Source: a virus
Lineage: Duplodnaviria > Caudoviricetes
IMG/VR virus record: IMGVR_UViG_3300028591_000084
Strand: one strand, 5' to 3'
Length of the DNA stretch: 64,000 bases
Shown here piece by piece: positions 3,584-51,984 of this stretch; within the stretch, counting starts at the first letter, position 1; each line of letters begins with the position of its first letter. The position numbers were made by a program, and so were the translations under genes. The notes beneath the pieces were generated by a model. That model had not been told where the DNA came from and searched no databases. It saw only the letters and a program-made list of their open reading frames with translations.

Positions 3584-3925
3584 ATTAAAAAATCATAGTG
3601 CATTACTAATTTTGGGATCGTTTGAAGCACAAATTTCGCTATTTCTCTGATTCTTAAATTTAATCTGATTTCGTATTAATTTTAAATTTACACTGTTAAG
3701 TAACATTTAGTAAACATATTATTACACAGATAAGGGATTAGGGCCTTAATGATGTGGAAAATATTATCTCAATCTTTTGGTTTTGTGGTGTAAATATCAG
3801 GATCTATTAAACATGATGAGATCATGACTCCTCAGGGCCTTAATAAAAAAGATGATTTGGAACTTTAAAAACTTGATTCTGATTTCTTGCGGAAAAGATA
3901 AAATCAATGACATGGTTCAAATATT

Positions 3926-4378
3926 TTGTTGTATATGAAGCTTTTTAGAGTAATTTTAAAACCCCATATTATTGTCAAGTTTAATTTTAGTGTTTACTGT
4001 GATCATTACTCCACGTACTTTCTCTGTGAAGACGAGCATATACTAAAGGATTCTTCATTGGTATTTAAAACTATTAGTAAGATTGATGAATTATCGCTCG
4101 ATTGTGACTTCACTAACAAGGATTATCGTTTTGAAAAAGTGTGGGAAGAAGGAGAAGTAAGGTGGACTGATGAAAAAGATCATCTTTTAAGGGAGGATCT
4201 TAAACACTTATTTCCAGAAGTAGATATTAGAAAGTTTTTTAACCTTAGCATTATTTATAAAATTCTAAAAGAAAGAAGATCGCATAGCTGTAGCTGTATA
4301 TATAATTATGGTCTCTTACCAAAAGTAAGAAGTATACAAATAACTACGACTATTTTTCTCATTGACAATCAACCTTAA
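3926..4378 (+). CDS. hypothetical protein (probable ATG at 3935)
   Basis: ORF followed by hairpin and T tract. Confidence 0.55.
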   Translation: MLYMKLFRVILKPHIIVKFNFSVYCDHYSTYFLCEDEHILKDSSLVFKTISKIDELSLDCDFTNKDYRFEKVWEEGEVRWTDEKDHLLREDLKHLFPEVDIRKFFNLSIIYKILKERRSHSCSCIYNYGLLPKVRSIQITTTIFLIDNQP

Positions 4379-4434
4379 AGAAATTGCCTGTAACAAGGTA
4401 ATTTTTTTTCAAAACCTATCTCTAAACTCTCCTC

Positions 4435-4450
4435 AAAGCCTTATATATGT
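4435..4450 (+). promoter_or_regulatory. phage promoter motif AAAGCCTTATATATGT
   Basis: Motif AAnnCYTTAnnnnTG recurs upstream of most transcription units. Confidence 0.7.
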
Positions 4451-4525
4451 GACTGAAACGTAGTAAGTTACCTTCCGAAGGATTAGCGGGTTCCGATCCT
4501 AAGGAATGAGAAAAAAAAGGAACCT
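4449..4525 (+). ncRNA. Structured leader RNA motif, copy 1
   Basis: Near-identical to 10366-10440; stems GTRACT/AGTTAC and GGTTCC/GGAACC, possible pseudoknot AGGAT/ATCCT. Confidence 0.55.
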
Positions 4526-4540
4526 GACAACAACAAGTAT

Positions 4541-5434
4541 ATGAGAAACGTTACTATTGTCTACCATAAGGTGGATTTCGACGGACTTGGCAGTGCACTA
4601 ATTGCCAAGGATGTAATGAAGGATTCCGACCATGTAATAGAACTGATCGGTTGGAACTACGGGGATCAGATCCCCAACCTTGACCGGGATGTAGTAGTCC
4701 TGGTTGACATATCATTTCCAAAAGAGATAATGAGAAGTTTAGATCCGAATCGAACAATTTGGATCGACCATCACGTCTCTGCCTTGAAAGACGCAGAGGA
4801 AGGTGGCTACAACAATCTGCCCGGTATTCGCCGGGTGGGAATCGGCGCAATAGCACTGACATGGGAGCTCTTCCATTCTGAGGGGGAACTTCCCGAGGTT
4901 ATCAGTCTTCTGGCCAAGCACGACGTTTGGTTGAAAGACGGGGAATGGGAAAGCAGAACTGTCCCGTTCCAACGCGGATTACGAACTTCATTGGGTATGA
5001 GCCTGGAGAAGCTCGAAAAGATCTGGCCCCAACTCCTCAGGGGCGAAAAAATTGAGGAGTTGATCGACTTAGGCCGTACAATTGATAAGTACGACCAAGA
5101 TCGGTTCAGCGTGGCTTTGAAGCGCTTTAGCTTCGAGGCTAAAATTGGTGATTTGACAGCTATATGCATGATGTCAAACGATTGGGGAGGACATCTGTTC
5201 CGCTCAGTCGAAAGCCAATACCCTGTTCTGGCATGTATCAACGTTGATGCACAGAAAAGCCGGCAGGGTGGAAAGAATATCTATCAGATGAGCCTTTATG
5301 GCACTGACAGATGCGATGCAGATCTTAGCATTATAGCCAAAGCCCATGGCGGCGGAGGACATGCTAGGGCATGTGGGTTCCCCTTGACGGAGGAGGAATT
5401 CATCCATCTCATGACGAGAAGGGAACTCATCTGA
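4541..5434 (+). CDS. DHH/DHHA1 family phosphoesterase
   Basis: YHKVDFDG, LVDIS, WIDHH, GGGGHARACGF. Confidence 0.9.
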   Translation: MRNVTIVYHKVDFDGLGSALIAKDVMKDSDHVIELIGWNYGDQIPNLDRDVVVLVDISFPKEIMRSLDPNRTIWIDHHVSALKDAEEGGYNNLPGIRRVGIGAIALTWELFHSEGELPEVISLLAKHDVWLKDGEWESRTVPFQRGLRTSLGMSLEKLEKIWPQLLRGEKIEELIDLGRTIDKYDQDRFSVALKRFSFEAKIGDLTAICMMSNDWGGHLFRSVESQYPVLACINVDAQKSRQGGKNIYQMSLYGTDRCDADLSIIAKAHGGGGHARACGFPLTEEEFIHLMTRRELI

Positions 5435-5442
5435 AAGGAGGG

Positions 5443-5475
5443 GGCCGAGATGTAAAAGTCTCGGCTTTCTTTTTT
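5443..5475 (+). terminator. intrinsic terminator
   Basis: GGCCGAGA-TGTAAAAG-TCTCGGCT followed by T tract. Confidence 0.7.
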
Positions 5476-5603
5476 AACTGGACTCTGTATTAGAATTCCT
5501 TCGGATCCTTATATATGTGACTGGAAGATGGAGGAGTTTAATTCCCCTTCTCTTTTTATGCCTTAAATTAGGGGGAAAATAAACCTACCTTTGAACTCTC
5601 CTC

Positions 5604-6989: not shown

Positions 6990-7033
6990 TGCCTCTTTTT
7001 CTTTTCATCCCGCCTAATCACCTTATTCCTGAT

Positions 7034-8413
7034 ATGAAAGAAATATTAAAATTTATTGGAGAAATAGCAGAAGAATTAGGATTGTCTGCTTATGTTGTTG
7101 GAGGTTATGTCCGTGATGAGATACTTGGACGTAACTCTTATGATATTGATATCCTGGTTGTGGGAAAGGGAGTGAAGCTAGCCGAAGAAGTTGGTAAGAG
7201 AACTAATTCTAAGGTTCTAGTTTTTAAGAATTTTGGAACAGCTCAACTCATCTACCAGGAACAAGTTATAGAATTTGTTGGTGCTAGAAAAGAGTCATAT
7301 CAAAGAGGATCCAGAAAGCCTATAGTTGAAGAAGGAACTTTGGAAGACGATTTAACAAGGCGGGATTTTACAATTAATGCTATTGCCAAATCAATAATGC
7401 CAAGAGATTTTGGAACTATTATTGATTTGTTTGGTGGCCAGGAAGATATTAAACTTGGTATTATAAAATCCCCTACTGATCCTTTAATAACCTTTTCTGA
7501 CGATCCTCTTAGAATGCTGAGGGCTATAAGATTTGCCACAACACTAGGCTTTGAAATAGATCCAACTACTTTTGAAGCAATCAAAAAAACTGTTGATAGA
7601 TTAGATATTATCAGTCCAGAAAGGATTACCACAGAATTATGCAAGATTATGTCATCTAATGATCCTGGAACTGGAATAGATTTACTAAAGGAGTCAGGTC
7701 TTTTAAAGAAGATTATACCGGAACTTGATATTCTTGATACCTCAGATAGTGAATGTGGTCGAGGTCATAAGAATAATTACTGGCACTCTGTTCAAGTCCT
7801 AAGAGGTGTTGCTGATAAGTCTAATTCTTTATGGCTTAGATGGGCAGCGCTTCTTCACGATATAGGTAAAGAGCCTACAAAGAAGTTTATAGGTGGGGAC
7901 GAAGGTTGGTCTTTTATTGGTCATGAGGCTATCGGTGCTGATATGGCTGAGGTCATATTTAGAAGATTGAAATTACCATTGGGAGATACAGTAAAGTATG
8001 TTAAAAAGCTAATCAATCTTCATATGAGACCTGCTTATATTAGTACTAGTGAAATAACAGACTCTGGTGTTAGACGGCTCTTATTTGATGCTGGTGATGA
8101 TTTTGATGATTTAATGATCCTTTGTAGATCTGACTTGACAACAAAGAGAGAGGATAAAAGGGAGAGAATTGAAAAGCACTATGATCAACTCCAAAGTCTC
8201 GTTAGTGATCTTAAAGAAAGGGATCAAAGAAGATTATTCCAACCTTGTATAAACGGAAATGATATTAAAGAGCGCTACGGACTTAGAACTGGAAGACTAG
8301 TGGGTCAACTTAAGAATTTTATTAAAGAAGGAGTTTTAGATGGGAGACTAGAAAACACCAGATCCTGTCTATTTAAAGCGCTGGATGAAGAATGGAATCG
8401 GATAAAGAAATAA
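7034..8413 (+). CDS. cca: CCA-adding tRNA nucleotidyltransferase with HD domain
   Basis: VGGYVRD, DIDI, RRDFTINA, DPLRMLRAIRF, LLHDIGK; ATG at 7034 preferred over GTG at 6989. Confidence 0.9.
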   Translation: MKEILKFIGEIAEELGLSAYVVGGYVRDEILGRNSYDIDILVVGKGVKLAEEVGKRTNSKVLVFKNFGTAQLIYQEQVIEFVGARKESYQRGSRKPIVEEGTLEDDLTRRDFTINAIAKSIMPRDFGTIIDLFGGQEDIKLGIIKSPTDPLITFSDDPLRMLRAIRFATTLGFEIDPTTFEAIKKTVDRLDIISPERITTELCKIMSSNDPGTGIDLLKESGLLKKIIPELDILDTSDSECGRGHKNNYWHSVQVLRGVADKSNSLWLRWAALLHDIGKEPTKKFIGGDEGWSFIGHEAIGADMAEVIFRRLKLPLGDTVKYVKKLINLHMRPAYISTSEITDSGVRRLLFDAGDDFDDLMILCRSDLTTKREDKRERIEKHYDQLQSLVSDLKERDQRRLFQPCINGNDIKERYGLRTGRLVGQLKNFIKEGVLDGRLENTRSCLFKALDEEWNRIKK

Positions 8414-10365: not shown

Positions 10366-10440
10366 GTAACTGAAAGGTAGTAAGTTACCTTCCGAAGGAT
10401 TAATGGGTTCCGATCCTAAGGAATGAGAAAAAAGGAACCT
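10366..10440 (+). ncRNA. Structured leader RNA motif, copy 2
   Basis: Repeat of 4449-4525 directly after promoter 10352-10367. Confidence 0.55.
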
Positions 10441-10829: not shown

Positions 10830-10875
10830 GATTTCTTTTTTTTCTTTTTGTTCCGCCTAAACCTTTATTATTGAT

Positions 10876-11421
10876 ATGAATTTTAGAATAGCTTATTTTA
10901 TTAGTGATTCAGATCCAACCTGTTTAGAAATGGCTGTTGAATTGCCAAGATTATTATTAAATAAGCGAGGCCAGGAGATGGTACTGATTAAAAGTCCTCT
11001 AAGCGACTATACATACTATCCCTTTTTTGGTAATGATGATACTGAGCCTGAAAAATGGTTAGAAAAGTGGTTAAGGCCTGATAAAAAACAGGAAAAGATA
11101 GAATTAGGGCCTACTACTGTTCGTCTTTATGTTTTAAAGCCATTTGATGAGGGTTATAACGGTAATTTTAAAGTATTATCATCAGGGATTATAAAAAGAA
11201 TATTTGAAAAATGTTCAGCCAAGGTTCCATTGAATCTTCAAGTACCTGGATCTCTTTATAGTATTCCTGTTGAAGACCCACTTATAATCAATAATCCTCA
11301 TTCTACAATTTTGATAGAGGAGAATGACATAGAGTTTGAAAATGTAAAGAAATCGCCATTTACTCCCGAAATCTTCCTCACAATTAAATACTTACTAAGA
11401 TATGGCACGAACAAAATATAG
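10876..11421 (+). CDS. hypothetical protein
   Basis: 181 aa ORF immediately after a promoter motif. Confidence 0.65.
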   Translation: MNFRIAYFISDSDPTCLEMAVELPRLLLNKRGQEMVLIKSPLSDYTYYPFFGNDDTEPEKWLEKWLRPDKKQEKIELGPTTVRLYVLKPFDEGYNGNFKVLSSGIIKRIFEKCSAKVPLNLQVPGSLYSIPVEDPLIINNPHSTILIEENDIEFENVKKSPFTPEIFLTIKYLLRYGTNKI

Positions 11422-14896: not shown

Positions 14897-14988
14897 ATCA
14901 TTAATAAGGATTTTAAGGGATAATTTTACATACAATTCAGGCTTAAGTCCTTATTTTTGAAAGTTTAATTAATAAAATAAAAAAAATC

Positions 14989-15735
14989 ATGAACATTCAA
15001 GAATTTAAAAAGAATTACGGTCTTAACACAGGAGATCCTAAGTGGATTATTAACGGTGGAGACTTGTTGAGGTATGTTGGAATGGAAGTAGTCTATATCG
15101 ATTATAAGAAAGATAAGACGACTGGGGAATGGAGTTCTAGAATCGAGAGGGCTATAATTAAAAAGATAGATGACTTCGATCCTATCACCATGACCTATCA
15201 CATTCTCTATGACTTGCTTGACTCAAAACAAACAGACTTAGAGGAGAGAATCATACCAGAGGGATATTCCTTCGATATCATGGGACAAGGTATTCAAGAC
15301 TCAATGAATCGCTTTACACCCTATTCTTATCACCTAATCCTCCAAGAAGAAGACCTGTTTTATAAGCGACTCTTGGAAGGATGGGATATCAATAAGACCC
15401 TTCCTTTTGAAGCCCTAAAAACAATAAATGAAAATAAAGAAAAATCTAAACTTTTAAAATACGCTAAGAATATTGTAGCCCTCATTAGACCATTCAAGGA
15501 TCAAAATGCTGAAGAACTGGAATACTCTGATGAAGTTCTACAATTTAGAATTTTTGACCTCATCTTGAAGCATGAATATAAAGAAGACTGGAGATTGATG
15601 ATTAAAGATAGAACAGGAAAATCTTTTAATATTCTCATTAGCGAAAAAGAAGAGGATTCATACGAATTTAAACTAGGAAAAGATCTGGTTGGGGATCTTA
15701 AAATTATAGATTTGGAAAAATGGTTAGATCATTAA
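14989..15735 (+). CDS. hypothetical protein
   Basis: 248 aa ORF after promoter 14945-14960. Confidence 0.7.
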   Translation: MNIQEFKKNYGLNTGDPKWIINGGDLLRYVGMEVVYIDYKKDKTTGEWSSRIERAIIKKIDDFDPITMTYHILYDLLDSKQTDLEERIIPEGYSFDIMGQGIQDSMNRFTPYSYHLILQEEDLFYKRLLEGWDINKTLPFEALKTINENKEKSKLLKYAKNIVALIRPFKDQNAEELEYSDEVLQFRIFDLILKHEYKEDWRLMIKDRTGKSFNILISEKEEDSYEFKLGKDLVGDLKIIDLEKWLDH

Positions 15736-15766
15736 TCTTAAGCGGCATCTTTATTAGTCTATACCC

Positions 15767-16288
15767 ATGGCTCGGACTAAGAAAATCTTAGCACTTGACG
15801 TTGCTTATAAAGGGTCGCAGTATAAGGGAGTTGGAATAGTCTTCAGTGAGTGGACCCAGGGAGAACCTAATGAAGTGATTGAAATTAAAGGTCGAAATAA
15901 TGCACCTTATATTCCTGGCGAATTCTGGAAAAAAGAAGTGCCAATACTTAAAGAATTGTGCAAAAATCTCGACCAAATAAAAACAATCATAGTGGATGGT
16001 TTCTTGGAGGTCCTAGATGATAGGACTGAGAAACTTAATTCTAGCTTCTATGAGCATCTAATGAAAGAACTTAAAGGGTGGAAAGGACAAGTAATTGGAA
16101 TTGCTAAGAGTGACTTTGGAGAAACGGGAAAGAAAGGATATGCTTTGAGATGGGAAAGGGGAGGTAAACCACTCTGGATCCAATGGAAAAATGGTAAAGA
16201 TCCAACCAAAAATCTCAAGGAAATGAAAGGAGATAAAAGACTTCCTGATCTCTTACAATTTTTGGATGATAAAACTAAAGAAAATTAA
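15767..16288 (+). CDS. nfi: endonuclease V family protein
   Basis: ALDVAY, PYIPGEFWKKE, IIVDG, VIGIAKS, RLPDLL. Confidence 0.8.
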   Translation: MARTKKILALDVAYKGSQYKGVGIVFSEWTQGEPNEVIEIKGRNNAPYIPGEFWKKEVPILKELCKNLDQIKTIIVDGFLEVLDDRTEKLNSSFYEHLMKELKGWKGQVIGIAKSDFGETGKKGYALRWERGGKPLWIQWKNGKDPTKNLKEMKGDKRLPDLLQFLDDKTKEN

Positions 16289-16383
16289 AAACTAATAAAA
16301 GGTGGAGATCCTATGATGGGCCTCCCCTTCTTTTTTTTTCAATTCAATAAATTACTACTAGGATCCCCTTGTATTCTTATTAT

Positions 16384-16563
16384 TGGAGAATTAGAAATTT
16401 AATTTGATATTATCTATTCATATTTATTCCATGGGGATCCATCCTGTCTGTGAAGATAAGGTGGTGCACGTATTAGTTAGTATCGTTTTGTTTTCATAAT
16501 ATACTTGTTGTTGTTTTATTTTTTAATTCTCTAGGTAGTGGTCTGTGAAGATCGCTACTTTTC
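16384..16563 (+). ncRNA. putative two-module antisense small RNA
   Basis: Promoter-like motif ~16370-16386; two GTCT-GTGA-AGAT hairpins; 16499-16514 is the exact reverse complement of 4527-4542. Confidence 0.6.
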
Positions 16564-16624
16564 TTCATCGCTTCAAACCCTTATTAATAAGTATAATTTT
16601 TTTAATTTAATTTAAACAACAAGT

Positions 16625-17950
16625 ATGAAAAAGAAGACAAAAGAAAAAGTGGAATTCTTCAATACTGTAAGAGACGGTATTAAAAGTGGGCTGTTCGTAG
16701 AGGAGCCCGGAAGAGTGAAGAGGGGCGAAATAGTTCCTCTTATTGAAAAACTAGACCAATACAACGGTCTAGAGGTAAAGAGAACCCACAGAGATTGTTG
16801 GAATCTGTGGGCAATAATAAAGAAGAACTTAAAGCTTCTTCGAGTCCAGAATGCATACATACTGCCCAACGAGGCAGTAGCACCTGCAGCAGTACCTGCA
16901 GTAGAGAGTAATTATATCTTGCCCGCCAGCCCAGATAAGATGTTGGCGGAGGCAAGACGGAGATTCAGGCAGCGGCATCCTGAATGTCATAAGGCATTTA
17001 AGATCGAAAGAGGAATTTCTTTCAAGGAAGCCGAATTCGACTTGATTTGGTTGATGGTTTCTGACAGGGTTACAATAGGCAAAACCCTTTGGGCTGTCCA
17101 GGACGCCCACCCGAAAGGATCTGCAAAGACCTGGAATGGATGGGAGAGAATAATCGAGAAGCTAAGTTTCTACAATATCAACAGATTTTCGATTATTAGA
17201 CAGGGCAACAAAAAATACATAAGGATCGAAGGAACTATCCAGGATGCCTTGATCTTGCAGAGGGATCTTTCGAAAGTAGGAAAGAAGCTTCTCAATAAGA
17301 ACTATGAGGTAATTAAAGACCTCAAGCCTGTCGAGAAGCAGGATGATTTTATCGCTCCCACTACAGCATTAAAGAGTGGTATTGACGATAGGGACGGGTT
17401 CATCCTGTTAGTTCTTACAAAACTGGCAGAGAATGAGGGGGTAGGAATTGATGAGGCTAGACAAATTTTAGCCTTGAATCGGTACTACCCGGTGAATTAT
17501 AGTAGCGGGGAAATAAAGGACCTCGTTGCCCGTTTCCCCGAGTATCTTACCATCAACAGTCTGGATGGCAAAATACAATCTGTCATTCAGAACAGATGTC
17601 CAGAAGAATTGAAGAAATTTAGCCCTTATAACAGGGCAATGGAAATCACGCTAATAATCTCATCAAAGCTCCCTTTAGAGGAGATTGAGAAGGTTATCGG
17701 AAAAGTAGTGGTGCACTATTCTTCCGAGGAGGTAATGGTATGTACTTCCTCATTAAGTGAAGGACGAGACGACATAATTAAGCTAGCAAGGCTGAAAGAA
17801 AAGCTTCGATCAACAGACAAGATAGTGGGTCTTCACAGGCCAGAACTGTTGGTAGACGAGATGGATCGTCTCCTGAGGGTGGCCGTAATGCCAACCCAAT
17901 TATTAGGGCGATCGAGAGAGGCATTGATAGAAGCTGCCGTTAGAGTTTAA
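16625..17950 (+). CDS. hypothetical protein
   Basis: 441 aa ORF with GC-richer codon usage. Confidence 0.75.
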   Translation: MKKKTKEKVEFFNTVRDGIKSGLFVEEPGRVKRGEIVPLIEKLDQYNGLEVKRTHRDCWNLWAIIKKNLKLLRVQNAYILPNEAVAPAAVPAVESNYILPASPDKMLAEARRRFRQRHPECHKAFKIERGISFKEAEFDLIWLMVSDRVTIGKTLWAVQDAHPKGSAKTWNGWERIIEKLSFYNINRFSIIRQGNKKYIRIEGTIQDALILQRDLSKVGKKLLNKNYEVIKDLKPVEKQDDFIAPTTALKSGIDDRDGFILLVLTKLAENEGVGIDEARQILALNRYYPVNYSSGEIKDLVARFPEYLTINSLDGKIQSVIQNRCPEELKKFSPYNRAMEITLIISSKLPLEEIEKVIGKVVVHYSSEEVMVCTSSLSEGRDDIIKLARLKEKLRSTDKIVGLHRPELLVDEMDRLLRVAVMPTQLLGRSREALIEAAVRV

Positions 17951-18025
17951 TTTTAAAAGTAAAAGGAAGAACCGGGATATAATGTCCTGGTTTTTCTTTT
18001 GTCCCTTTAATTCTTTATTATTGAT

Positions 18026-18346
18026 ATGAGTATTAAAGTTAGAAGTGTTATTGATGTTATTACTAATAGTAGTAGTGAAACTTTTATAATTAAGAATTCT
18101 GGTGGAGATACAATTGATGATGTCCCTAAGAGATTCTACAACTTTATTGAAAGTCGTTACGGTCAGACTTATGGCACCAGAGACGCCCCGGCATTTTCTG
18201 GTGTATATGATGCTGATTTCTATACTAAGCCTGACGGCTCTATTGTAGTAGACTATCAAGTAATGTGTAATCTTGATGAAGGCCTCGAAATATTAGAAGA
18301 AATCTACGGAAAAGGGAACGTTAGTCGTGAAGAATCTGATTATTAG
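18026..18346 (+). CDS. DVITNSSSE-motif protein
   Basis: N-terminal RSVIDVITNSSSETF. Confidence 0.7.
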   Translation: MSIKVRSVIDVITNSSSETFIIKNSGGDTIDDVPKRFYNFIESRYGQTYGTRDAPAFSGVYDADFYTKPDGSIVVDYQVMCNLDEGLEILEEIYGKGNVSREESDY

Positions 18347-18920
18347 AAGTGTTATTGATGTCATCACTAATAGTAGTAGTGAAACCTTTTTGATTAAACG
18401 AGGTACTAAGACGTTAAAAGAAATAGAGAATGACCTACTAAGTCATAAAAGTGATAAGGATAGGGGTACTGGAATGGGAGGAATCCTAGAGGTTAAAGAT
18501 AGAGTTTGGGAAGATACAGAAAAAATTAGGTCTGACTTGGCCATCGTTGATATTGACCAAGGTTTTAAGGATCTTATGAAATATCTCTTAAAAACCTATT
18601 ACGTTATTGATGTCATGGATTCAACAGCTATTCTAGGACCTGACAATGAAAGGGTTATTTCTATTGGAAAATCTTCAAGCTTAACTGGTGCTAGAAGAGA
18701 GGGCGGTGAGATAGTTGAACTTATTTCATACTATTCTGACATAAAGGAGCAAGAGAGGATCCTTAATGGCCCTAATGGTGAAGAAGAACTATTAAAATAC
18801 TTTAAATGGAATGAAACTTGTGGTTCAAAGGAGGATTTACTCAAACAAGTCAGAGAGTGCATTAAGAAAATTAATAATAATCCAATAGTAAAGAAATATG
18901 CACCAACTAAAGAGTCATAA
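18327..18920 (+). CDS. DVITNSSSE-motif protein (tandem paralogue)
   Basis: Identical RSVIDVITNSSSETF motif. Confidence 0.7.
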   Translation: MKNLIIRSVIDVITNSSSETFLIKRGTKTLKEIENDLLSHKSDKDRGTGMGGILEVKDRVWEDTEKIRSDLAIVDIDQGFKDLMKYLLKTYYVIDVMDSTAILGPDNERVISIGKSSSLTGARREGGEIVELISYYSDIKEQERILNGPNGEEELLKYFKWNETCGSKEDLLKQVRECIKKINNNPIVKKYAPTKES

Positions 18921-19647
18921 AGGGATGAAAGCTTATTGTTTTAAGCTGACAGATCCTGAGAGTACAAGAATAGAACTTGAATTTAATATATTAGATACTC
19001 CATACTTCTGTCTTAAAACTGAGAGCCTAACCGATATTAGAGAGCAAGTTTGTAAAAAGAATTATTGGTCTTGGGATGCAGATTGGATAGCTTGTGATAA
19101 TGATACCTCTTCATTTCCGATGCCGAGAGTTGATTCTCTAGGATTCGGATCAGATAAAAAGAATTTGGAAGAAGCATTATCAGACTATGAACCAGTAGTA
19201 GGATATTATTACTGCTGTGTTCCAATAGACTCAATAGAAAATAAAATAATTGAGGATAAATTTAGCATTCTCAATATTTTTGATTCTTTAACACCAGGAG
19301 ATTATATAGTCTATAATACAATAGGTGCAGAAAAGAATTCTCTAACGATGCTTTATGGTGGTAAAGGAGACTTTATAGCTCTTTATAGTGAAGCCTTTAG
19401 GAAAGTAGCTTCACCGTCAGCAGACCCATTAAAAAGTGGTTTTATAGGGTCTCTAGACTTAGTACCTGGGGATTGGTTGATAATGCTAAGCTCCTTAGAT
19501 TTGAAGACTAGAAGAAGAGCATCACTTCAGGAGATTATGATTATGAATCGTGAAATAGAAAGGGTCGGTTATCGACTCAGTAGGAATTCTAAAACTATAA
19601 AAATAGTAAAGGATGAGCAACCTGAGCGTAATTTTAAATCGCAGTGA
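18898..19647 (+). CDS. hypothetical protein
   Basis: 249 aa ORF. Confidence 0.65.
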   Translation: MHQLKSHKGMKAYCFKLTDPESTRIELEFNILDTPYFCLKTESLTDIREQVCKKNYWSWDADWIACDNDTSSFPMPRVDSLGFGSDKKNLEEALSDYEPVVGYYYCCVPIDSIENKIIEDKFSILNIFDSLTPGDYIVYNTIGAEKNSLTMLYGGKGDFIALYSEAFRKVASPSADPLKSGFIGSLDLVPGDWLIMLSSLDLKTRRRASLQEIMIMNREIERVGYRLSRNSKTIKIVKDEQPERNFKSQ

Positions 19648-20083
19648 TGTCCCAAAATCACATCAAGCGGAATATTTTGATTGGGACGGTATAATATCAG
19701 GAGAAGATACTTTTTGTACCAGAGATGAAATGATAATAATCATTGAAGTCGGCCTAAAAGAGAAGTTAAGGGATAATCCTCTTCTCGGTCAATCATGGGA
19801 TTTCAGTGCTCAACTTAGGGGAAGCACTAAGGAATGGTTGAATAAAGAATGGCTTGATCTAACTCACCGCAACAAAACTATCTTCAAAAAGCTCTTAGGT
19901 CTGGCCTACATAACAAGTAAGCCCAGAGAATATTTTAAGAGCGATGGGGAATATGAAGAGTATATTTCCTATCTGAAGTCCAAAGCCGTTTTGAGGTGTG
20001 AAGGAACAAAAGATTTTCTAATGACTTATAAAAATTTAATATTCAATAAAGAAGAGCTGAAAAAATTGCAGCAATTCTTCTAA
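19613..20083 (+). CDS. hypothetical protein
   Basis: 156 aa ORF. Confidence 0.65.
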   Translation: MSNLSVILNRSDVPKSHQAEYFDWDGIISGEDTFCTRDEMIIIIEVGLKEKLRDNPLLGQSWDFSAQLRGSTKEWLNKEWLDLTHRNKTIFKKLLGLAYITSKPREYFKSDGEYEEYISYLKSKAVLRCEGTKDFLMTYKNLIFNKEELKKLQQFF

Positions 20084-20155
20084 GGTAGTACTTGTTACAG
20101 TACTACTTTTTGTTTTATCTCCTCAAATCCTTACAGTTGATTAAGTATTTAAATT

Positions 20156-21172
20156 ATGGAACTATTAAAGAAACTTATTGAAACCCCGAGCCCAACAGGT
20201 AGAGAGGGCGCGATTGCAAATTTATTTATTAAAGAATTACCAGAGGGAACTGGTACAATTGATGCAATGAATAATGCCTACTATTTACAAGGCTCAAGTA
20301 ATTTACTTCTATCAGCTCACCATGATGAAATAGCTTTTGCTGTTTCCTATATTGAAGAATCTGGCCTGATTCGTATAATGAGGACGAGCGGTGAGGATCC
20401 TAGAGTATTACCTGGATTAAGATTGGAGGTTATAACAGATAGCGGTGACCTAGTAAAAGGTATTATCTGTATGAGACCTATTCACGTAGTTGAAACTAAA
20501 GACCGTGATACCTTACCTAAGCTTGAAACACTAGCTCTTGAGGTTGGAGCCACAAGTAGAGAGAATGTCGAGAAGATGGGAATTCATATTGGTTCCCCAG
20601 TTATCTTTGAGAGATCCTTCCTAATACTCGGGGATTTGATTATTGCCCCTGGCCTTGATGATAAAATAGGTGTTTATATCGTCATGGAAGTCCTGAGACA
20701 GTGTAAGGAAATAAATCAAGTCGCTGGTTGTTTAATGGCAGCCGAAGAGACTGGTACTAGGGGAGCTAAGGTTGCAGCAAGAAAACTAAATCCTCTTCAT
20801 TCTCTGGACTTTGATGTGACTTTTACAACCGATGATGGTAGTGGCTTGTCCCCAGCTAGATTTGGTGGAGAGGTTAAATTAGGCGCGGGACCAATTATTG
20901 AATATGGTCCAGATAAGAATGCTAAGGGCTGTGACTTTTTGATTGATCTAGCAAAACAAAACGATATTCCTTATCAGATAGCCGTAAGTAGAGCTGGAGG
21001 AACAAATACTGCTAGAATTCAAGAGTTTTCAAATAATGGTTGTTTGTGTAACCTCTTATCTATTCCTTGTCGAAACCTTCACCAGCCGAATGAGATTGTT
21101 AGTAAAAAGGATGTTGAGGCTGCAATCAAACTAAGCGTTTTATGGACAAAGGCCCTTGGGACGAAAGATTGA
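20156..21172 (+). CDS. M42 family aminopeptidase
   Basis: SPTGRE, SAHHDEI, LDDKIG, AEETGTRGA, DFDVT, GGTN, LHQPNE. Confidence 0.9.
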   Translation: MELLKKLIETPSPTGREGAIANLFIKELPEGTGTIDAMNNAYYLQGSSNLLLSAHHDEIAFAVSYIEESGLIRIMRTSGEDPRVLPGLRLEVITDSGDLVKGIICMRPIHVVETKDRDTLPKLETLALEVGATSRENVEKMGIHIGSPVIFERSFLILGDLIIAPGLDDKIGVYIVMEVLRQCKEINQVAGCLMAAEETGTRGAKVAARKLNPLHSLDFDVTFTTDDGSGLSPARFGGEVKLGAGPIIEYGPDKNAKGCDFLIDLAKQNDIPYQIAVSRAGGTNTARIQEFSNNGCLCNLLSIPCRNLHQPNEIVSKKDVEAAIKLSVLWTKALGTKD

Positions 21173-21480
21173 TGAAGAGTAGAATAATAGAGTTTTGTAT
21201 CTTCGCCATACTAGTTCTAGTTCTATATTGGACGATATATTCTTATATTCAAACCGTAGAAGCTAGAGATAGAATTTCAAAGAGTTTCTATGCATTTTCC
21301 CAGGAGTATGAAGACAGCTTACTATCAAGAGAAATGGAAGGCTATCGGAGAGGAAAAGCTGAAGTTCTTGATTCCCTAAGAGAAATGAAATTAAAATTAG
21401 AGGAAGAAAGAAAGCGTAGGAAATATTTTGAGCATCTTAAAACTGAGAGTGAAGATACTTTAAATATTGGAGGAGATTAA
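21142..21480 (+). CDS. membrane-anchored coiled-coil protein
   Basis: N-terminal TM helix. Confidence 0.6.
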   Translation: MDKGPWDERLMKSRIIEFCIFAILVLVLYWTIYSYIQTVEARDRISKSFYAFSQEYEDSLLSREMEGYRRGKAEVLDSLREMKLKLEEERKRRKYFEHLKTESEDTLNIGGD

Positions 21481-21501
21481 TTTCTCCTCTTTTCTTTATT
21501 A

Positions 21502-22668
21502 TTGATGATGAAAAAATACAAATTTACTAAATTTATTGAGTACGGTTATTTAGACCAACACACCGTAAGTTTCAAAATTCCAGGTATATCATATGTAGAA
21601 GAAATAGCCTGGACTGCTTCACTGGATCCTTCTCTACCTAATTTTAAAACCTTAGAGAATAATCCGACAAAGGGATTCAAAATTCGTCAAGAAGCATCGG
21701 GAACTATATTATTAGAGGATCCTAGAGGTATTGCGTTGAGTATTGATCCTGGTTATGCAAGTCAGTTACTTTTATCATATGGTTCTAAACTGGGAGAGAT
21801 AGAATTTCAGTATTTGTTCAAAGAGGATCATCCAATTATTGTTCCAGCCGAATTTATAAATAACTATTCAGTGAAATCTTACAAAAGAATACCAGGATAT
21901 TGGTATAGATCTTTAATAAATAGAGATTCACTATACTGCATTAATATCGAGGTGATTTCACTAGGTCCAAACAAAAGGCAAATCTGTTATTTATTCTGGG
22001 ACAAAATGAGTGACGATTTTTTAATTTGTCCGGAAGAAGTAGTGAATATTTATGTTGATACTCTTGGAAGTGAATATATACCCGATTCATCTGAAGAAAA
22101 GTTAAGTAGAAGTGAATGTTCATGTCTTCAGGAAGAGTTAAGGCTAATAGCCCCTGTTTGTATGAACAACGTTATTGGAGACCTTAAATCTCTAAAGTCA
22201 GCTTATCAAAATGATGAAGGTAGTAATGTTTATCTCGACTATATTCCAGAAATTCTCTTAATGACAAAAGAGATTAACCGGGATTTTAGAAATCTCGAAT
22301 TACCGACTACATTTGCTGTCAGAGAAAGTGTCCAGCATTTTAGTATTGTCCAATATGATCCAGTGTCAAAAAGAGCCTGGAAGAGATATATGGTAAATTG
22401 TAAGAAAGGAAAAATTATATACACTACTTTAAACCCAAGTCAGGTCTCTATTGAGGATGTTTTAAAGGTTGGAGTACCTCTTTCGGTTGGAGATAATCAG
22501 ATAGCTACAATAGGGACAACAACACTAAATTCCTACTTCGTTACTCCTTGGTTATCAAATTACGATCTAACTAGTGCCCTTGTTTTAAAGCCAGAGGCAA
22601 TGAATAAGAAGGAACTCGAGCAGACCTTGAGAAGCGCCGATATTCATTATAATTATGCTAGACTTTAG
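21502..22668 (+). CDS. hypothetical protein
   Basis: 388 aa ORF. Confidence 0.7.
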   Translation: MMMKKYKFTKFIEYGYLDQHTVSFKIPGISYVEEIAWTASLDPSLPNFKTLENNPTKGFKIRQEASGTILLEDPRGIALSIDPGYASQLLLSYGSKLGEIEFQYLFKEDHPIIVPAEFINNYSVKSYKRIPGYWYRSLINRDSLYCINIEVISLGPNKRQICYLFWDKMSDDFLICPEEVVNIYVDTLGSEYIPDSSEEKLSRSECSCLQEELRLIAPVCMNNVIGDLKSLKSAYQNDEGSNVYLDYIPEILLMTKEINRDFRNLELPTTFAVRESVQHFSIVQYDPVSKRAWKRYMVNCKKGKIIYTTLNPSQVSIEDVLKVGVPLSVGDNQIATIGTTTLNSYFVTPWLSNYDLTSALVLKPEAMNKKELEQTLRSADIHYNYARL

Positions 22669-23449
22669 GGGAGATAGAGGTAAATGTAATAAATATTATA
22701 AGAACTTTTCTAAGCGACGTAAATGGATCAATGAGAAATATGGTGGTACAAAAATAGGACATAGGAAATTACTAAGAGCTTTAAATTCCTATGAAGATTG
22801 CCACTATCGTCCTTATATTAATATGCGGAAGATAGAGAAATTCCTATTAAAGAGAGTAGGGCATCCAATTGAAGAGGTAGCTGAAGATTTTGTTAAGAGG
22901 ATGAAATTAGAAAAATGCTTACTTGTATCAAATCCTATAAGATACTTCTATTCAAATTGCTTATTTGTACTACCACCTAGTGGGTATATATCTCTAAATT
23001 ACTTCTATATTAGTAAACCACGTAGTAGGAAAGGTCAAGTAATAGCACGAAGGATCAGATATAATAAATTTTGGATCAATCCAGAAACTATGACTCTAGA
23101 GTTTGGAGAAAATCCGAATTATATTAGTAGAAGTTCGGAACTAAACTATGATGTCAGAAAAGCCCCAAAAAGAATAGTAGAGTATAATGATAAACCAATA
23201 CATAGGGGTAAAGAGAATGGATTCTTTACTTCTATTGGTAGGTTCTATTATTTTCTTTTGGGGTTTGATTCTAAGATCTTAGGCCCAGATGATATTTATG
23301 CCATTAATACTAGGGCTTTTAATGATCCGGACGATAAACTGTACTATTTTATAAAACGGCATAATTTGAAGAGGGTAATTTTAGCAGGAGGACAAAAATA
23401 CTTAGATAATGGAGACATGTGTTTTGTTATTCCTTTCAAATCCCCCTAA
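22655..23449 (+). CDS. hypothetical basic protein
   Basis: 264 aa ORF. Confidence 0.65.
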   Translation: MLDFRGDRGKCNKYYKNFSKRRKWINEKYGGTKIGHRKLLRALNSYEDCHYRPYINMRKIEKFLLKRVGHPIEEVAEDFVKRMKLEKCLLVSNPIRYFYSNCLFVLPPSGYISLNYFYISKPRSRKGQVIARRIRYNKFWINPETMTLEFGENPNYISRSSELNYDVRKAPKRIVEYNDKPIHRGKENGFFTSIGRFYYFLLGFDSKILGPDDIYAINTRAFNDPDDKLYYFIKRHNLKRVILAGGQKYLDNGDMCFVIPFKSP

Positions 23450-23469
23450 ATCCTTATCGTTGTAAAGAT

Positions 23470-23938
23470 AGACTAGTAGCTCAGCCGGACAGAGCAACAG
23501 CCTTCAGCTCAAAGTAGGGCTAGCTTTATTTCCTAAATATATGATAAATTGGGAAAAGAGAAGGCCGACTTCGAGAAACTGATTCTTGAGGAAGGTAAGT
23601 CCTATGAGCCTATCTATAGGAAAAATATATAACTGTTCTGAATCTATAAGATTAGGAATGGCGATAGATATTACTATAGATATAGGAGCGTACTCAGGAA
23701 ACTGATGATACTGAAGATCCCCTAAACGACGAAAGCTAAGTCAGAGATGATATGCCAACGACGTGCCAAGCTTGAAAAAGAAAGTGCATAGAGACTATAC
23801 AGGGATCACCTACGTCAAAAAATTGATATGGTTATGAAATAGTCCAGACCACAAACAAATGTCTGTTGATATTTGGCAGTGAAAACTGTAGTTGGTAAGC
23901 TAAGCTGTGGGTCATGGGTTCGAATCCCATCTAGTCTA
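23470..23938 (+). tRNA. tRNA-Arg(TCT) split by a group I intron (exons 23470-23504 and 23900-23938); CCA not encoded
   Basis: Acceptor AGACTAG/CTAGTCT, D arm GCTC/GAGC with A20, anticodon stem ACAGC/GCTGT, joined loop CTTCTAA, T arm ATGGG-TTCGAAT-CCCAT. Confidence 0.85.
23505..23899 (+). mobile_element. group I intron in the tRNA anticodon loop, with decayed ORF
   Basis: P3 GATCCC/GGGATC, P7 AGAGACTA...AAATAGTCC, IGS AGGGCT, terminal G. Confidence 0.85.
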
Positions 23939-24005
23939 CACGATTAGAGATTAGAGATGAATAATCTCTTTTCTTTTTTTGTCCCTTTAATTCTTTATTA
24001 TTGAT

Positions 24006-24611
24006 ATGGGAACAAATTATTATGCGAGGATTATACCTACGCGAGAAAAGAAGAATAAACTAATAGAGCTTATTGAAAATGATGAATTTAATGCAATCAA
24101 AGACACTGTTGACCTTTATTACCGCTCTCCCAACTCTTATAATTGGAGGGGTGGAGAGATACATTTGGGGAAGCAGTCAGGCGGTTGGAAATTTCTTTGG
24201 AATCCGAATTGGTGGAAAGTAAATGAAGGATCCTATGACTCTAAAATACATAAGTATATTGATAAATGGGTTGTTCGAAAATATTATGATTTAAATAAAA
24301 ATTCAATTCTAAGATTCCTCCAACGCCCAGACATTAGACTCTTTGATGAGTACGGTGATGAGGTTAACAATAAAAAAGAGTGGTTTGACGATATAATCAA
24401 AAGAGATTCTGGAACTTGGTGCGGAAAACCACTATTAGACAATAAGCTCTATTTTGAAACTACTGAAGGGGGTAAAGATGAATGGAGGAGAAGTATATTC
24501 CGGGTACGAAGTGAAGAGAAACAGTTCTGGGAAGATCAAGGCTTTGATGCTGAATACTTAGATTTCTACTCTGATGGCCTTAGATTCAGTAGTTCGTGCG
24601 AGTTTTCATAA
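24006..24611 (+). CDS. hypothetical phage protein
   Basis: MGTNYY...IHLGKQSGGWKF motif; 201 aa. Confidence 0.7.
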   Translation: MGTNYYARIIPTREKKNKLIELIENDEFNAIKDTVDLYYRSPNSYNWRGGEIHLGKQSGGWKFLWNPNWWKVNEGSYDSKIHKYIDKWVVRKYYDLNKNSILRFLQRPDIRLFDEYGDEVNNKKEWFDDIIKRDSGTWCGKPLLDNKLYFETTEGGKDEWRRSIFRVRSEEKQFWEDQGFDAEYLDFYSDGLRFSSSCEFS

Positions 24612-24653
24612 TACAGGGGGAAGTAATACCCCCTTTTCCTTATTTTTGAAACA

Positions 24654-25181
24654 ATGGAACCATTTTTTATATGTGAATTAAGTAAAGAAGATATTGCATT
24701 TTTAAAAGCAGTACAAGATAAAGATTATTATAATTTATTTAAACTAAGAAGACAACAGCCTACTGCACTGATCTATGGTTTTATTGGCCAACTCTTGACA
24801 AAAGCTGATTTCATTAATACTATTGGAGTAATTATTTTTGCACAGATCAATATTACCTACTTAAAGAACTTAGCTTTTGATTCTCATGATTCTGATAGTC
24901 AGTGTATAGCTCTTGCCGTCCTGAAACTGATGGGGATAACAATTAGTGAATCTGGCATGACTTATGGGACATACGGTTCTCAGGATTTTATAGACTCCAC
25001 AGAAGAATGGATTAAGTTTTTAGATAGAAAAACGGATGATGTTAAGGAAGCGATTAAGAACTGTTATATTATAAGAATCAACGTTAATAGTACTCTTCGT
25101 TCTCTTTATAAAAATACTAAAGATTTCTTTTTTAATGAGGATAATAGTTGTAAGAAAAATAAGTTTATAATCCTAGAATGA
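24654..25181 (+). CDS. hypothetical protein
   Basis: 175 aa ORF. Confidence 0.65.
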   Translation: MEPFFICELSKEDIAFLKAVQDKDYYNLFKLRRQQPTALIYGFIGQLLTKADFINTIGVIIFAQINITYLKNLAFDSHDSDSQCIALAVLKLMGITISESGMTYGTYGSQDFIDSTEEWIKFLDRKTDDVKEAIKNCYIIRINVNSTLRSLYKNTKDFFFNEDNSCKKNKFIILE

Positions 25182-25540
25182 ACACTTATATTATATCTTA
25201 TAAAGTCCTATTGAAAGCTGAAAATATTATTTACCCAATACCAATAGATAATTTAGATCTTTGGAAACCAGAAAGAATAAATTGGGATTGGATCAAAACA
25301 AAAGGAAGATTATATTGGATGGCTATACTTGATATCCTAAAACTTCCTTATACCCAAGTATCAGTGAGTGGTGAAATACCGGCTGAAAAAAGATGGGAAG
25401 AATTCATCAAAGAAAATACATCTCGTCTTCAATCAAAAATTCAAGGTAAATACTTTATAGAGATTGATGATAAATTTTCAAAGAAAGATATGGTTAATGA
25501 TTTATTAAAGAAAAATAACTCTTGGCATGAGGAACTCTAA
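25178..25540 (+). CDS. hypothetical protein
   Basis: ATGA-coupled ORF. Confidence 0.6.
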   Translation: MNTYIISYKVLLKAENIIYPIPIDNLDLWKPERINWDWIKTKGRLYWMAILDILKLPYTQVSVSGEIPAEKRWEEFIKENTSRLQSKIQGKYFIEIDDKFSKKDMVNDLLKKNNSWHEEL

Positions 25541-25913
25541 ATGTTATGTTTATATTCTAAGAAGAAAAACTAAGTCTATCTACTTAACACTTAGTGATTT
25601 TAATGAAATAAGAGACTGGTTTTTAGACAGAATTTCTGAAGCTCAAATCAAAAATACTAAGGTTTTTGTAGTAGATAACCCTGAGATTTTTAGTTTATCA
25701 ACAACTATACCTCTCCAAACCAATGATATCATAATAGCCATTGATAATGCAGACAATGTTTATAAGTTCTTAGAACAAGTTTTAAGTACATTTATTACTT
25801 CCGGGGTCTATTCATTTTGTTATAATAATGAAGAAGTGATAATAGGTCCAGTATCTTGTGAATTAGATCTAAAAACAGGAGAAAATGAAAACATGTTGGA
25901 CGACCTCTTCTAA
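25527..25913 (+). CDS. hypothetical protein
   Basis: Overlapping ORF. Confidence 0.6.
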   Translation: MRNSKCYVYILRRKTKSIYLTLSDFNEIRDWFLDRISEAQIKNTKVFVVDNPEIFSLSTTIPLQTNDIIIAIDNADNVYKFLEQVLSTFITSGVYSFCYNNEEVIIGPVSCELDLKTGENENMLDDLF

Positions 25914-26949
25914 GCTAGGTATTAAGGTAAGAAGAAATCCAGATTATAATTATGAATCAATCTGGTTTAATCTCAAAACATACAGACTAGGGGAAGGAGA
26001 GAGTAAAGAATTACCACCAACAAAGGCAGAATTTTATGATGTGGCCTTAGGAACGAAGTGTAATGCTAATTGCCCAGATTGTTATGCCTCAGCTAGCCAG
26101 TCTGGTGAGCTATTTGAAAATATTTGTGAAACCTGGTTAAGGTTTATTAGTACTATGGCGCCAGATATTGAATTAAATCCAAAAGATGATCCTGTTCTGA
26201 AAGAAATCTTATTGGATCCTATTGATATTAGTGCCCCATACGATGTTTTAAGCCTTCAAGTTGGTGCTAGAGAGAATTATACACTCTATCACAAAATTAT
26301 ATTAACTGAGAAACCGACGCAAATAGCTATAGGATCAACAGGAGAGCCAACAATACATCCAGATTTCATCAAGTTTCTTCAGACCGTTTTTGAAACAGAA
26401 GTAGTTCCTAATTATACAACAAATGGTATAATTCTGGGAGGTAAAGAAGAACCTACTGATCTTTTGGATGCTACTGAAAAATGGGTTGGCGGAGTTGCTG
26501 TATCTTTTGGTAATAGGGCCCTTAGAAACTATGCTGTTAAGGCTATAGATAGGTTACAAGGAGTTACGAAAGTCGTTATTCACCATATCATTAAAGATAA
26601 GAATAGTGTTGATGAGGTATTCAAATATGCCGAGGATTATGGAGATAAGATTCACTATCATGTCCTCCTACCTTTGATGGCACACGGGAGATCTAAAGAA
26701 GGTATGAAGGATGATGGAACTTATCAATACCTGGCGGAGAGGGTTGAAAAAACTGGTATAAAGAATTTAGCTTTTGGGGCTAATTTTACTCCCTGGATGA
26801 AGAAATATCCAAACTTATTACCAGTATATGACTATCCGCAAGAAACCTATAGTAAAAATATTCTCTTAAAACCAGAGGGAATAGTAATAACAAAATCATC
26901 ATTTAATTTAGAAACTGTATATGCTGAAGTTAAAAAAGATAACGATTGA
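25885..26949 (+). CDS. radical SAM protein
   Basis: CNANCPDCY (CxxxCxxC), GEPTIHPDF, NYTTNG. Confidence 0.88.
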   Translation: MKTCWTTSSKLGIKVRRNPDYNYESIWFNLKTYRLGEGESKELPPTKAEFYDVALGTKCNANCPDCYASASQSGELFENICETWLRFISTMAPDIELNPKDDPVLKEILLDPIDISAPYDVLSLQVGARENYTLYHKIILTEKPTQIAIGSTGEPTIHPDFIKFLQTVFETEVVPNYTTNGIILGGKEEPTDLLDATEKWVGGVAVSFGNRALRNYAVKAIDRLQGVTKVVIHHIIKDKNSVDEVFKYAEDYGDKIHYHVLLPLMAHGRSKEGMKDDGTYQYLAERVEKTGIKNLAFGANFTPWMKKYPNLLPVYDYPQETYSKNILLKPEGIVITKSSFNLETVYAEVKKDND

Positions 26950-27688
26950 AAATTTTTTAGGAAGTGGTAAAGACTTGACTGTTGGGCTAAGCTGTTATAC
27001 TAATTATCTAGCTTATGAAGATCATTACCATAACGAAAGTAAGGTTGTAGCTGACGACTTATTGACAGCCTTAACGACAGAAAGTAATAAGGACCTGCCA
27101 AAGCTCAACTGTGGTTCGGCGATGATGATTGACTTTTCTATTGAAGGATCCTGGATATTATGGAAGGATGGACAGAACAAGAGAGCTGGATATGAAGCTG
27201 ATATCTTAAGAAAAAGTATTGTTTACTGGAATACGGAGGAATTACTTCAATTTAGTACTATTCCTGACTTAAGAGATAATTTAAAGAGTATAATAAAAAA
27301 TAAATATATTCCAAACAATAATGCAGCTATTAAAGAGGAAATTATTGAGGCTGTTAACTACTTCTTAGGATATAAAGAAGAAGAAGTGTTATTGATTCTA
27401 GAGAACGGACTCCGCTTAAGAGGCGGGAAATTGGTTGGTATTGATGCCTTGTCCACTGAGGTTGTGATAGGCCTTTCAATCATCTTAACTGTTCCGGCTT
27501 ATGGAGAATCGATAGTTATTATCTGGAATCCATCTTTTGGAATAACAGATAATGGATTGAGATCTAGAATAGTAACTTGCTTAGAGAGACTGAATTATGG
27601 TAACCAGAATATTGTTTTTACTAATGATAGAAAATTATATAAACACTGGGATGCCATAACAGAAAAAATAAAAATAGAGGACCTATAA
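26921..27688 (+). CDS. hypothetical protein, degenerate ABC/AAA ATPase-like N-terminus
   Basis: LKKITIENF start but no Walker A. Confidence 0.5.
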   Translation: MLKLKKITIENFLGSGKDLTVGLSCYTNYLAYEDHYHNESKVVADDLLTALTTESNKDLPKLNCGSAMMIDFSIEGSWILWKDGQNKRAGYEADILRKSIVYWNTEELLQFSTIPDLRDNLKSIIKNKYIPNNNAAIKEEIIEAVNYFLGYKEEEVLLILENGLRLRGGKLVGIDALSTEVVIGLSIILTVPAYGESIVIIWNPSFGITDNGLRSRIVTCLERLNYGNQNIVFTNDRKLYKHWDAITEKIKIEDL

Positions 27689-34265: not shown

Positions 34266-34454
34266 AATTAAATAAATAAAATAAATTAAATAATATAAAT
34301 AAATAAATTAATCACTAGTGAGGGAAACTTAATCTTCCCTCAATAATAAGAATTTAAGGGGACGTTAGGTAACTTTTTTACATTTCAGAAAGAAAAATTG
34401 AGAAAGCAATATTATACTTTCTCTGTTTGATTTTTGACGAGATTTCAAGGGAAG

Positions 34455-34805
34455 TAAAAAAAAAAGGTCCAGGATTTTACTCCTAGACCTAAAACACTCA
34501 ACTAAGCAGCCTTGACGATGAGGCCGAGGGTACAACTGCAAAACCTCTACACTGGTTTGTGTACGTCGTTGAACCAAGGATTTTATCTATCTTTGATCTT
34601 TCGTCTTTCATCTTTGATAATAAAAATCTTTGATCTTTGATCTTTTCATCTTTGAACTTTCAGCTTTAAGGTAAAATTACATCTGAAACATATGGAATGT
34701 AACAAATCTAACTATTAATTCCGCTTAGTTTAATCCTAATAAGAAATCTACCTTTTTAGCCTCTAGTAGAAAGAGAGCGTTATTTTTAGCCTCTTTCGCT
34801 TAGTA
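34455..34805 (-). ncRNA. structured RNA with ten 7-nt periodic AAAG repeats
   Basis: Closing stem ACTAAGC/GCTTAGT, repeats 34591-34667, terminator 34457-34490. Confidence 0.6.
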
Positions 34806-35547: not shown

Positions 35548-35785
35548 TTAACAATTATAAAGATTTGACGGGATTATATTTTCCAAATATAAAAAAGAAA
35601 GGGAGGGTTAGGCTAATTAAACTTTTTGTCTTTAATTCAAAAAACAAGCAAAAACAATTAAAGATGATTGCGGTACCTTTCAATCAAAGTTTCAGCACGA
35701 CCTCCCCGACAGTCTTTATCATACTAACTCGCCTCTCTTGCGCCGTGATTGGTTGATCAGTACTTTCAGACTGTTATTTCTATTA

Positions 35786-51907: not shown

Positions 51908-51984
51908 AAAATAGTAGTTTATATTCAACTTTAAGGGTAGGGAGGGAGGATAGAGGCATTTTTTATTGAAGTGGACTCTGTATT

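Follow-up and report, generated by a model that had tools for sequence, protein, structure and literature searches.

Directly upstream of a 441-aa gene, the genome of a jumbo phage from the rumen contains a compact unit which appears to specify a non-coding RNA antisense to the start of this gene. Our tentative proposal, to which we give slightly less than an even chance, is that this RNA, transcribed from a promoter of its own (P1), conceals the start of the neighbouring gene in cis on RNA that reads through, and perhaps also in trans, a DHH-family phosphoesterase gene being an unproven second target. According to this proposal, P1 would start an RNA near 16389-16390 that contains a first hairpin, a mostly open U/G-rich stretch (16491-16514) and a second hairpin, and the open stretch would be antisense to the start region AACAACAAGUAUG. 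Incomplete termination at hairpin 2 would give rise to a read-through RNA with both the anti-start element and, about 100 nt further on, the start of the 441-aa gene. On such an RNA the element and the start would pair and the start would be hidden from ribosomes, while RNA started at a second promoter (P2) would lack the anti-start element and would be translatable. The RNA stopping at hairpin 2 (approximately 178 nt) could pair in trans with the P2 messages and with the DHH message, which have a common leader. The effect on translation and any action in trans are what we purely infer.

The window analysed here, a stretch of 64,000 nt, is an AT-rich piece (approximately 35% GC) of an uncultured giant (312-kb) rumen jumbo phage, and its proteins are also carried by a contig of 311,995 nt in public assemblies. 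It encodes a split RNA polymerase beta subunit with distant likeness to the AR9/PBS1 enzymes and, further, an SbcCD-like nuclease, a DnaB-like helicase, a CCA-adding enzyme and an FtsH-like protease. A Shine-Dalgarno (SD) sequence is absent from most of its genes. The recurrent promoter motif of the window, a CCC box followed by C/T-TTAT-NNN-TG, resembles the -7 box TAnnTTTG of Bacteroidota (PMC7366714). At positions 10864-10878, 18014-18028, 23994-24008 and 7022-7036 an ATG follows just 3 nt past the last G of this motif, and the genes in question would have leaderless messages or their true starts would be elsewhere. Another observation concerns the tRNA at 35547-35477, which is preceded by two tandem promoter motifs (35552-35593, minus strand). 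Since the last G of the proximal motif precedes its first base by 5 nt, transcription starts are placed at about G+4/5.

The unit, all features of which are on the plus strand, is preceded by a 173-aa (Endonuclease V-like) gene with an intrinsic terminator at 16299-16338, a hairpin of -14.1 kcal/mol followed by nine T (U9) without a single substitution in comparison to a relative lineage (see below). P1 (16354-16389) is of the genome-wide class, with a CCC box followed by CTTATTATTG at 16376-16385, and is close in sequence to the promoter at 34350 on the minus strand. P2 (16558-16593), with CTTATTAATA at 16580-16589 and a predicted start near 16594, is identical in the relative lineage and leaves a leader of 31 nt in front of the ATG of the 441-aa gene (16625-17950). 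A position weight matrix (PWM) trained on 22 promoter copies, with this locus left out, gave P1 a score of 17.3 and P2 a score of 17.1. Both are among the 28 sites with a score of at least 15 in 128 kb, the next best site having 13.4, and a second promoter class was not recognised. Because P1 and P2 share one motif class, there is no sign of a T4-like timing switch.

The RNA of approximately 178 nt which is predicted to start at P1 (16389-16567) does not contain an ORF of at least 60 aa and is a candidate for a small RNA or for the 5' part of a long leader. Reading of its sequence revealed a candidate small ORF of 22 codons (MGIHPV..., 16431-16499). Hairpin 1 (16439-16464; -12.5 kcal/mol, z -3.2) has a GUGA loop and no U tract. 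The anti-start element (16491-16514), recognised by its complementarity to two gene starts, consists of TTTTCAT (anti-AUG) and ATATACTTGTTGTTGT and is partly unpaired in the predicted fold of the RNA. Hairpin 2 (16533-16567) has a stem of 12 bp (-15.5 kcal/mol, z -4.4); the U tract with which the RNA had been said to end is indeed found behind it, although it is weak (UUUUCUUC). The plus strand of the whole RNA folds far better than shuffled sequences (z -3.9), the minus strand having a z of -0.46. A reading of the unit on the minus strand was rejected, since this strand has only a 6-codon frame, no promoter motif and no fold signal. Rfam searches of 16250-16700 (E up to 10) and of the whole window (E up to 1) returned only one tRNA. 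An inverted repeat, GGATCCCCTTG / CATGGGGATCC (16361-16371 and 16430-16440), flanks P1 and the predicted RNA start; as its left arm is located upstream of the RNA start, a role, if there is one, would be played by the DNA, for instance through binding of a protein.

The locus had been singled out in a first-pass annotation of the window by the complementarity of the RNA to two gene starts, and here the description was exact. The sequence 16499-16514 (ATATACTTGTTGTTGT) is the precise reverse complement of 4527-4542, which comprises the last 14 nt of the DHH leader and the AT of the DHH ATG, and 16501-16512 is the precise reverse complement of 16615-16626, the last two bases of which are the AT of the start codon ATG in the 441-aa gene. 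In the latter gene, the start region predicted to pair with the element is AACAACAAGTATGAAAA (16615-16631). The leader shared by the two genes is real as well: ACAACAAGTAT was found exactly three times in the window, before both ATGs and once inverted at the locus. Within the window the element thus matches the DHH start over 16 nt and that of its neighbour over 12 nt (plus 7 nt with a bulge).

By its length alone, a 16-nt inverted match is unremarkable in this window. There are ten exact inverted matches of at least 16 nt, five of which represent a real repeat family and approximately four of which look accidental, and in random sequence of the same composition about 0.27 16-mer complements to any of the 67 start regions are expected. 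The position of the complement was assessed by scanning a seed (16485-16522) against every 40-nt segment on both strands. Apart from self-matches, it paired best with the DHH start (-26.2 kcal/mol), followed by the start of the 441-aa gene (-24.3 kcal/mol) and an internal site (-24.0 kcal/mol), and the best values of reversed or shuffled seeds were between -21.6 and -23.0 kcal/mol. Start regions made up about 2% of the targets scanned. Since both start regions share ACAACAAGTAT, their complementarity counts as one event and not as two, which corresponds to a p of roughly 0.02. The position of the complement at two gene starts moderately exceeds chance.

The first-pass annotation also placed the locus in a wider antisense-guide model, for which the other candidates gave no support. 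The RNA had been divided into two modules, each with an anti-ATG segment and a hairpin; module 1 (TTCATATTT) is without matches to start regions and performs no better than its reversed control. The same was found for the cassettes near 9965, 52491, 52385 and 52295: the top six pairing sites of these four cassettes and of module 1 were never start regions and were no better than those of reversed controls. Because the other cassettes have no preference for start sites, the present locus stands alone in the window, and the idea of guide RNA cassettes in this genome is not borne out by them.

The gene with the longer match, DHH (4541-5434), is NrnB-like. Its Pfam DHH hit (E 1.2e-5) is below the curated cutoff, and one source names the gene oligoribonuclease NrnB/DHH superfamily. 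As had been remarked earlier, DHH and the 441-aa gene are GC-richer than their surroundings; with a GC content of 0.49 and 0.44, respectively, they are the two GC-richest genes of the window, all others being between 0.27 and 0.41. Together with the shared ACAACAAGTAT leader, the high GC content may point to recent acquisition. A structured leader of 57 nt is duplicated ahead of unrelated genes in the window (4460-4516 and 10377-10433). The shared part stops just before ACAACAACAAGTAT, so that the DHH target site is outside this repeat.

If the complementarity is taken at face value, a discrete small RNA of about 180 nt could end at hairpin 2 and repress DHH through the 16-nt duplex and the 441-aa gene through the 12-nt duplex in trans, read-through being irrelevant. 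We regard this as unlikely. In line with it, the unit is equipped with a promoter of its own and with a terminator in use elsewhere, the two targets are the two GC-richest genes, and the small RNAs GibS and FopS of Bacteroides act in this manner on SD-less start regions (PMC7366714, PMC11697453). Furthermore, the DHH site, which gives the best duplex in the window, is 83% unpaired in the predicted DHH 5' end, and its cofold gain with the RNA amounts to -23.7 kcal/mol; for the P2 message the gain is -19.3 kcal/mol. However, the inverted match is of a length that arises by chance in the window, and no DHH leader was found for the relative lineage. In L006, a natural variant of DHH, the site is without TA (2 nt), so that 14 nt are left, and in a distant phage (L021), whose DHH homologue has 41% identity, the gene is inside an operon and ACAACAAG is present nowhere. 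In addition, none of the other cassettes has start-site complementarity, and contigs cross hairpin 2 (see below), so that the RNA is not only short. DHH is a purely putative, unproven second target of the anti-start element.

The preferred reading, the masking of the neighbour's start in cis, involves RNA that continues beyond hairpin 2. The 12-mer GTCTGTGAAGAT has exactly two copies in the window, at 16446 and 16541, each topping a GUGA-loop hairpin. As had been described, the tops of hairpins 1 and 2 have 12 nt in common (GTCT-GTGA-AGAT). Their proposed kinship to the hairpin of the 52 kb array extends to the GUGA-type loop and a few flanking bases, with nothing further in common. Hairpin 1 is identical in the relative lineage. 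For hairpin 2 (16532-16562) we found an exact copy of 30 nt in the same phage, behind a ClpB-like gene of 924 aa (L017:5816-5848), where it has a better T tract. A search of IMG/VR with the 18-nt hairpin top gave three matches, and only that in contig L020, which belongs to an unrelated phage, is a true hairpin, in which the 18-nt top is carried by another lower stem, likewise complementary, and a T tract is present. The other two matches were dismissed as chance in GC-rich DNA. The reuse behind the ClpB-like gene and the recurrence of the top in L020 identify hairpin 2 as a terminator module. The contig ends described below suggest that this terminator is leaky and that termination is incomplete.

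The 30-nt repeat also has consequences at the level of assemblies. It accounts for an erroneous link between the ClpB-like gene and the 441-aa gene in the Logan contig L013; we considered L013 as evidence for a second gene order and rejected it as a chimera through this repeat. For the same reason, the contigs of the relative lineage break exactly at hairpin 2, with an overlap of 29 nt. Other elements are reused in a similar manner. A second terminator module (GGTCTnGGA-GUAAAA-UCCUGGACC) is found at 34465-34490 on the minus strand of the window and at L017:5785-5808, and the sequence GGACTCTGTATTA is located behind three different terminators, namely after DHH (5480-5492), at the edge of the 52-kb array (51972-51984) and after the ClpB-like gene (L017:5860-5872).

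Several public contigs have ends that resemble those of transcripts. In the JGI sample 3300024345, contigs corresponding to 3798-5472 (L009), 14971-16301 (L015) and 16397-27679 (L012) of the window all have their start +12/+13 from the final G of a promoter motif and their end at a terminator hairpin. L015 ends in the terminator of the 173-aa gene, and the gap of 95 nt between L015 and L012 corresponds exactly to this terminator and P1. A contig from a different sample, L014, covers 16402-17976. L012 and L014 begin at +12 and +17 from G16385 of P1, respectively, and both continue across hairpin 2 into the 441-aa gene. The start of contig L003, at 16610, is downstream of P2. The starts of five DHH contigs, which come from five samples, fall at 4460-4464 (+11 to +15 from G4449), where there is also a repeat boundary. 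Separately, we observed that the first 25 nt of the Logan contig L010 (L010:1-25) are an Illumina adapter fused to window position 4463, near the predicted 5' end of the DHH message. The contigs L004 and L005 of the relative lineage run across promoters, terminators and an oppositely oriented gene and are interrupted at repeats alone, which is typical for DNA assemblies.

The contig ends suggest that L009, L015, L012 and L014 are derived from RNA and that the samples are metatranscriptomes, strand and abundance being not visible in contigs. They further suggest that P1 is active, that transcription proceeds rightward and that there is some read-through of hairpin 2 into the 441-aa gene.

For a P1 transcript of this kind (16392-16680), partition function calculations predict that every base of AACAACAAGUAU is paired to the anti-start element, with a P of 0.9-1.0. 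The 441-aa gene start is predicted to be mostly open on the P2 transcript. In silico, the start is thus paired when the transcript is long and unpaired when it is short, and P2 is located between the upstream arm and the start codon, as in start masking of the T4 type. The outer and inner promoters of different temporal classes that belong to T4-type masking are not seen here, since P1 and P2 are of one motif class. Because contigs read through hairpin 2 and the start is predicted to pair in cis with a P of about 1.0, a role in cis on the neighbour is at least as likely as action in trans over 12 kb. The view of the locus as a repressor RNA, put forward in the first-pass annotation, therefore stands in part: it is a self-contained unit on the plus strand with a genome-type promoter (P1) and a reused terminator, and the two starts named as targets are the best ones, but the contigs read through hairpin 2.

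The locus could be compared in two distinct lineages only, that of the window phage and one relative lineage. Homologues of the 441-aa protein, which could not be assigned to a Pfam, PHROG or Atlas family, were found at 98% and 87% identity, the latter representing the relative lineage. Relatives were found neither by a protein search of IMG/VR, nor in JGI metagenome contigs by protein or by the hairpin 2 word, nor by a DNA search of the INPHARED phage collection, and a search of IMG/VR with the anti-start word gave no match. In the relative lineage the leader of the 441-aa gene reads AACAATAACAACAAGTATTATG, and the anti-start element has one extra GTT with an identical core. The complementarity to the start of the neighbouring gene is kept and is longer; the helix is predicted to extend over about 28 bp, with the AUG included, and P is about 1.0 there too. 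Cognate pairs of element and start from the two lineages sum up to -49.1 kcal/mol, compared to -40.5 kcal/mol for swapped pairs. The differences between the lineages avoid both hairpins and the anti-start core. The body of the RNA differs by 3.6% substitutions and 16 gap columns, third codon positions by 4.6-8.4%. With only two lineages and a near-neutral rate in the RNA body, this conservation proves little. Moreover, the element and the leaders vary in the manner of simple repeats, by GTT slippage and by TA units, respectively.

These comparisons bear on the possibility that the locus has no antisense function and is a shuffled promoter/terminator module, the complement being left over from a gene start that was duplicated in inverted orientation. 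We consider this somewhat unlikely. The minus strand of the element indeed looks like a gene start, with a leader, an ATG and six codons, and the true leader in the relative lineage reads GTATTATG, like this minus strand. Verbatim reuse of modules is common, as exemplified by hairpin 2, the GUAAAA-loop terminator (34490 on the minus strand, and L017), the 57-nt DHH leader at 10377-10433 and the promoter arrays. There is also a mosaic boundary at approximately 16597 in the comparison to L001/L004: sequences to the left are 96-100% identical, and the leader and the 441-aa gene to the right are 87% identical, which suggests exchange of alleles at the promoter/leader junction. A near-neutral rate and many indels in the RNA body would be in agreement with a relic, too. 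On the other hand, the structure is specific to the plus strand and the top two targets are start regions. A relic also fits poorly with the advantage of 8.6 kcal/mol of cognate over swapped pairs in the two lineages and with changes that spare both hairpins and the anti-start core.

The comparison of the lineages is also relevant for the 22-codon frame at 16431-16499. It could be a micropeptide gene, or it could encode a leader peptide that gates the pairing of the element by translational attenuation of the ermC type; we find both improbable. The frame from ATG to TAA is kept in the relative lineage, where it has 21 codons, and there are no substitutions inside it and both indels (+3 and -6) are in frame. 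However, two indels would both be in frame by chance in about 1 of 9 cases. The stop codon TAA overlaps the first base of the 16-nt element, which would suit attenuation. At the other end, the ATG is in a palindrome directly before hairpin 1 and is without the A-rich context seen at the starts of this phage. Further, part of the frame coincides with the hairpin top, and this top is preserved at the RNA level in hairpin 2, which is non-coding. It is tempting to combine these elements and to speculate that a dedicated RNA silences two acquired GC-richer genes, DHH and the 441-aa gene with their foreign-looking shared leader, the 22-codon ORF serving as an ermC-like switch operated by ribosomes in an SD-less host, but to us such a combination seems highly improbable.

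We return to masking of the 441-aa gene start by the P1 transcript, as proposed at the outset. To our knowledge, very few lytic phages have been found to control their own genes by RNA pairing, and we know of almost nothing on such control in jumbo phages of rumen or gut bacteria with SD-less messages. The locus described here is a compact case, with two promoters, one leaky terminator, a 24-nt element and two candidate targets. Masking of start sites on long transcripts was described for the genes e, soc, 49 and I-TevI of phage T4 (PMC3014915). There, too, the start is locked with an upstream sequence on transcripts coming from far upstream, and a promoter between the two arms gives rise to a shorter, translatable message (PMC3014915). 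In T4, however, a local hairpin forms and the promoter between the arms belongs to the late class (PMC3014915), whereas in the present locus a terminator lies between the arms, which are separated by approximately 100 nt, the two promoters share one class and a Shine-Dalgarno sequence is absent.

Among antisense RNAs of phages, c4 of phages P1/P7, reportedly described by Citron and Schuster in 1990, is said to be located upstream of its target and to be cut out by RNase P. Like c4, the RNA described here would be a small antisense RNA with the same direction and transcript as its target; c4 pairs with the ribosome-loading region and can act in trans. Unlike c4, it has its own terminator and no evident immunity function, and the Rfam C4 covariance model did not match 16250-16700 (E up to 10) or the whole window (E up to 1). 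GibS and FopS of Bacteroides thetaiotaomicron repress SD-less messages by pairing across the start codon, and a FopS-like sequence was seen in a Bacteroides phage (PMC7366714, PMC11697453). The likeness to these RNAs consists in the AT-rich sequence, the open seed and the terminator hairpin. The differences are that the seed is here in the 3' half and not at the 5' end and that the putative targets are phage genes; the FopS (RF04319)/GibS covariance models gave no match in 16250-16700 (E up to 10) or in the whole window (E up to 1).

Finally, the unit can be compared to the promoter-early-stem-loop (PeSL) cassettes of T4-type phages, which were reportedly taken as recombination modules by Arbiol et al. 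in 2010. Repeated promoter and hairpin modules between genes in variable regions are a common feature, and exact reuse and a mosaic boundary are found here as well. PeSL cassettes are without an antisense segment, whereas the unit described here carries the 24-nt anti-start element. In summary, start masking by RNA is a known type of control, while the sequence itself is new, and if masking in cis is true, the principle known from T4 extends to an unrelated phage and to an unrelated translation system.
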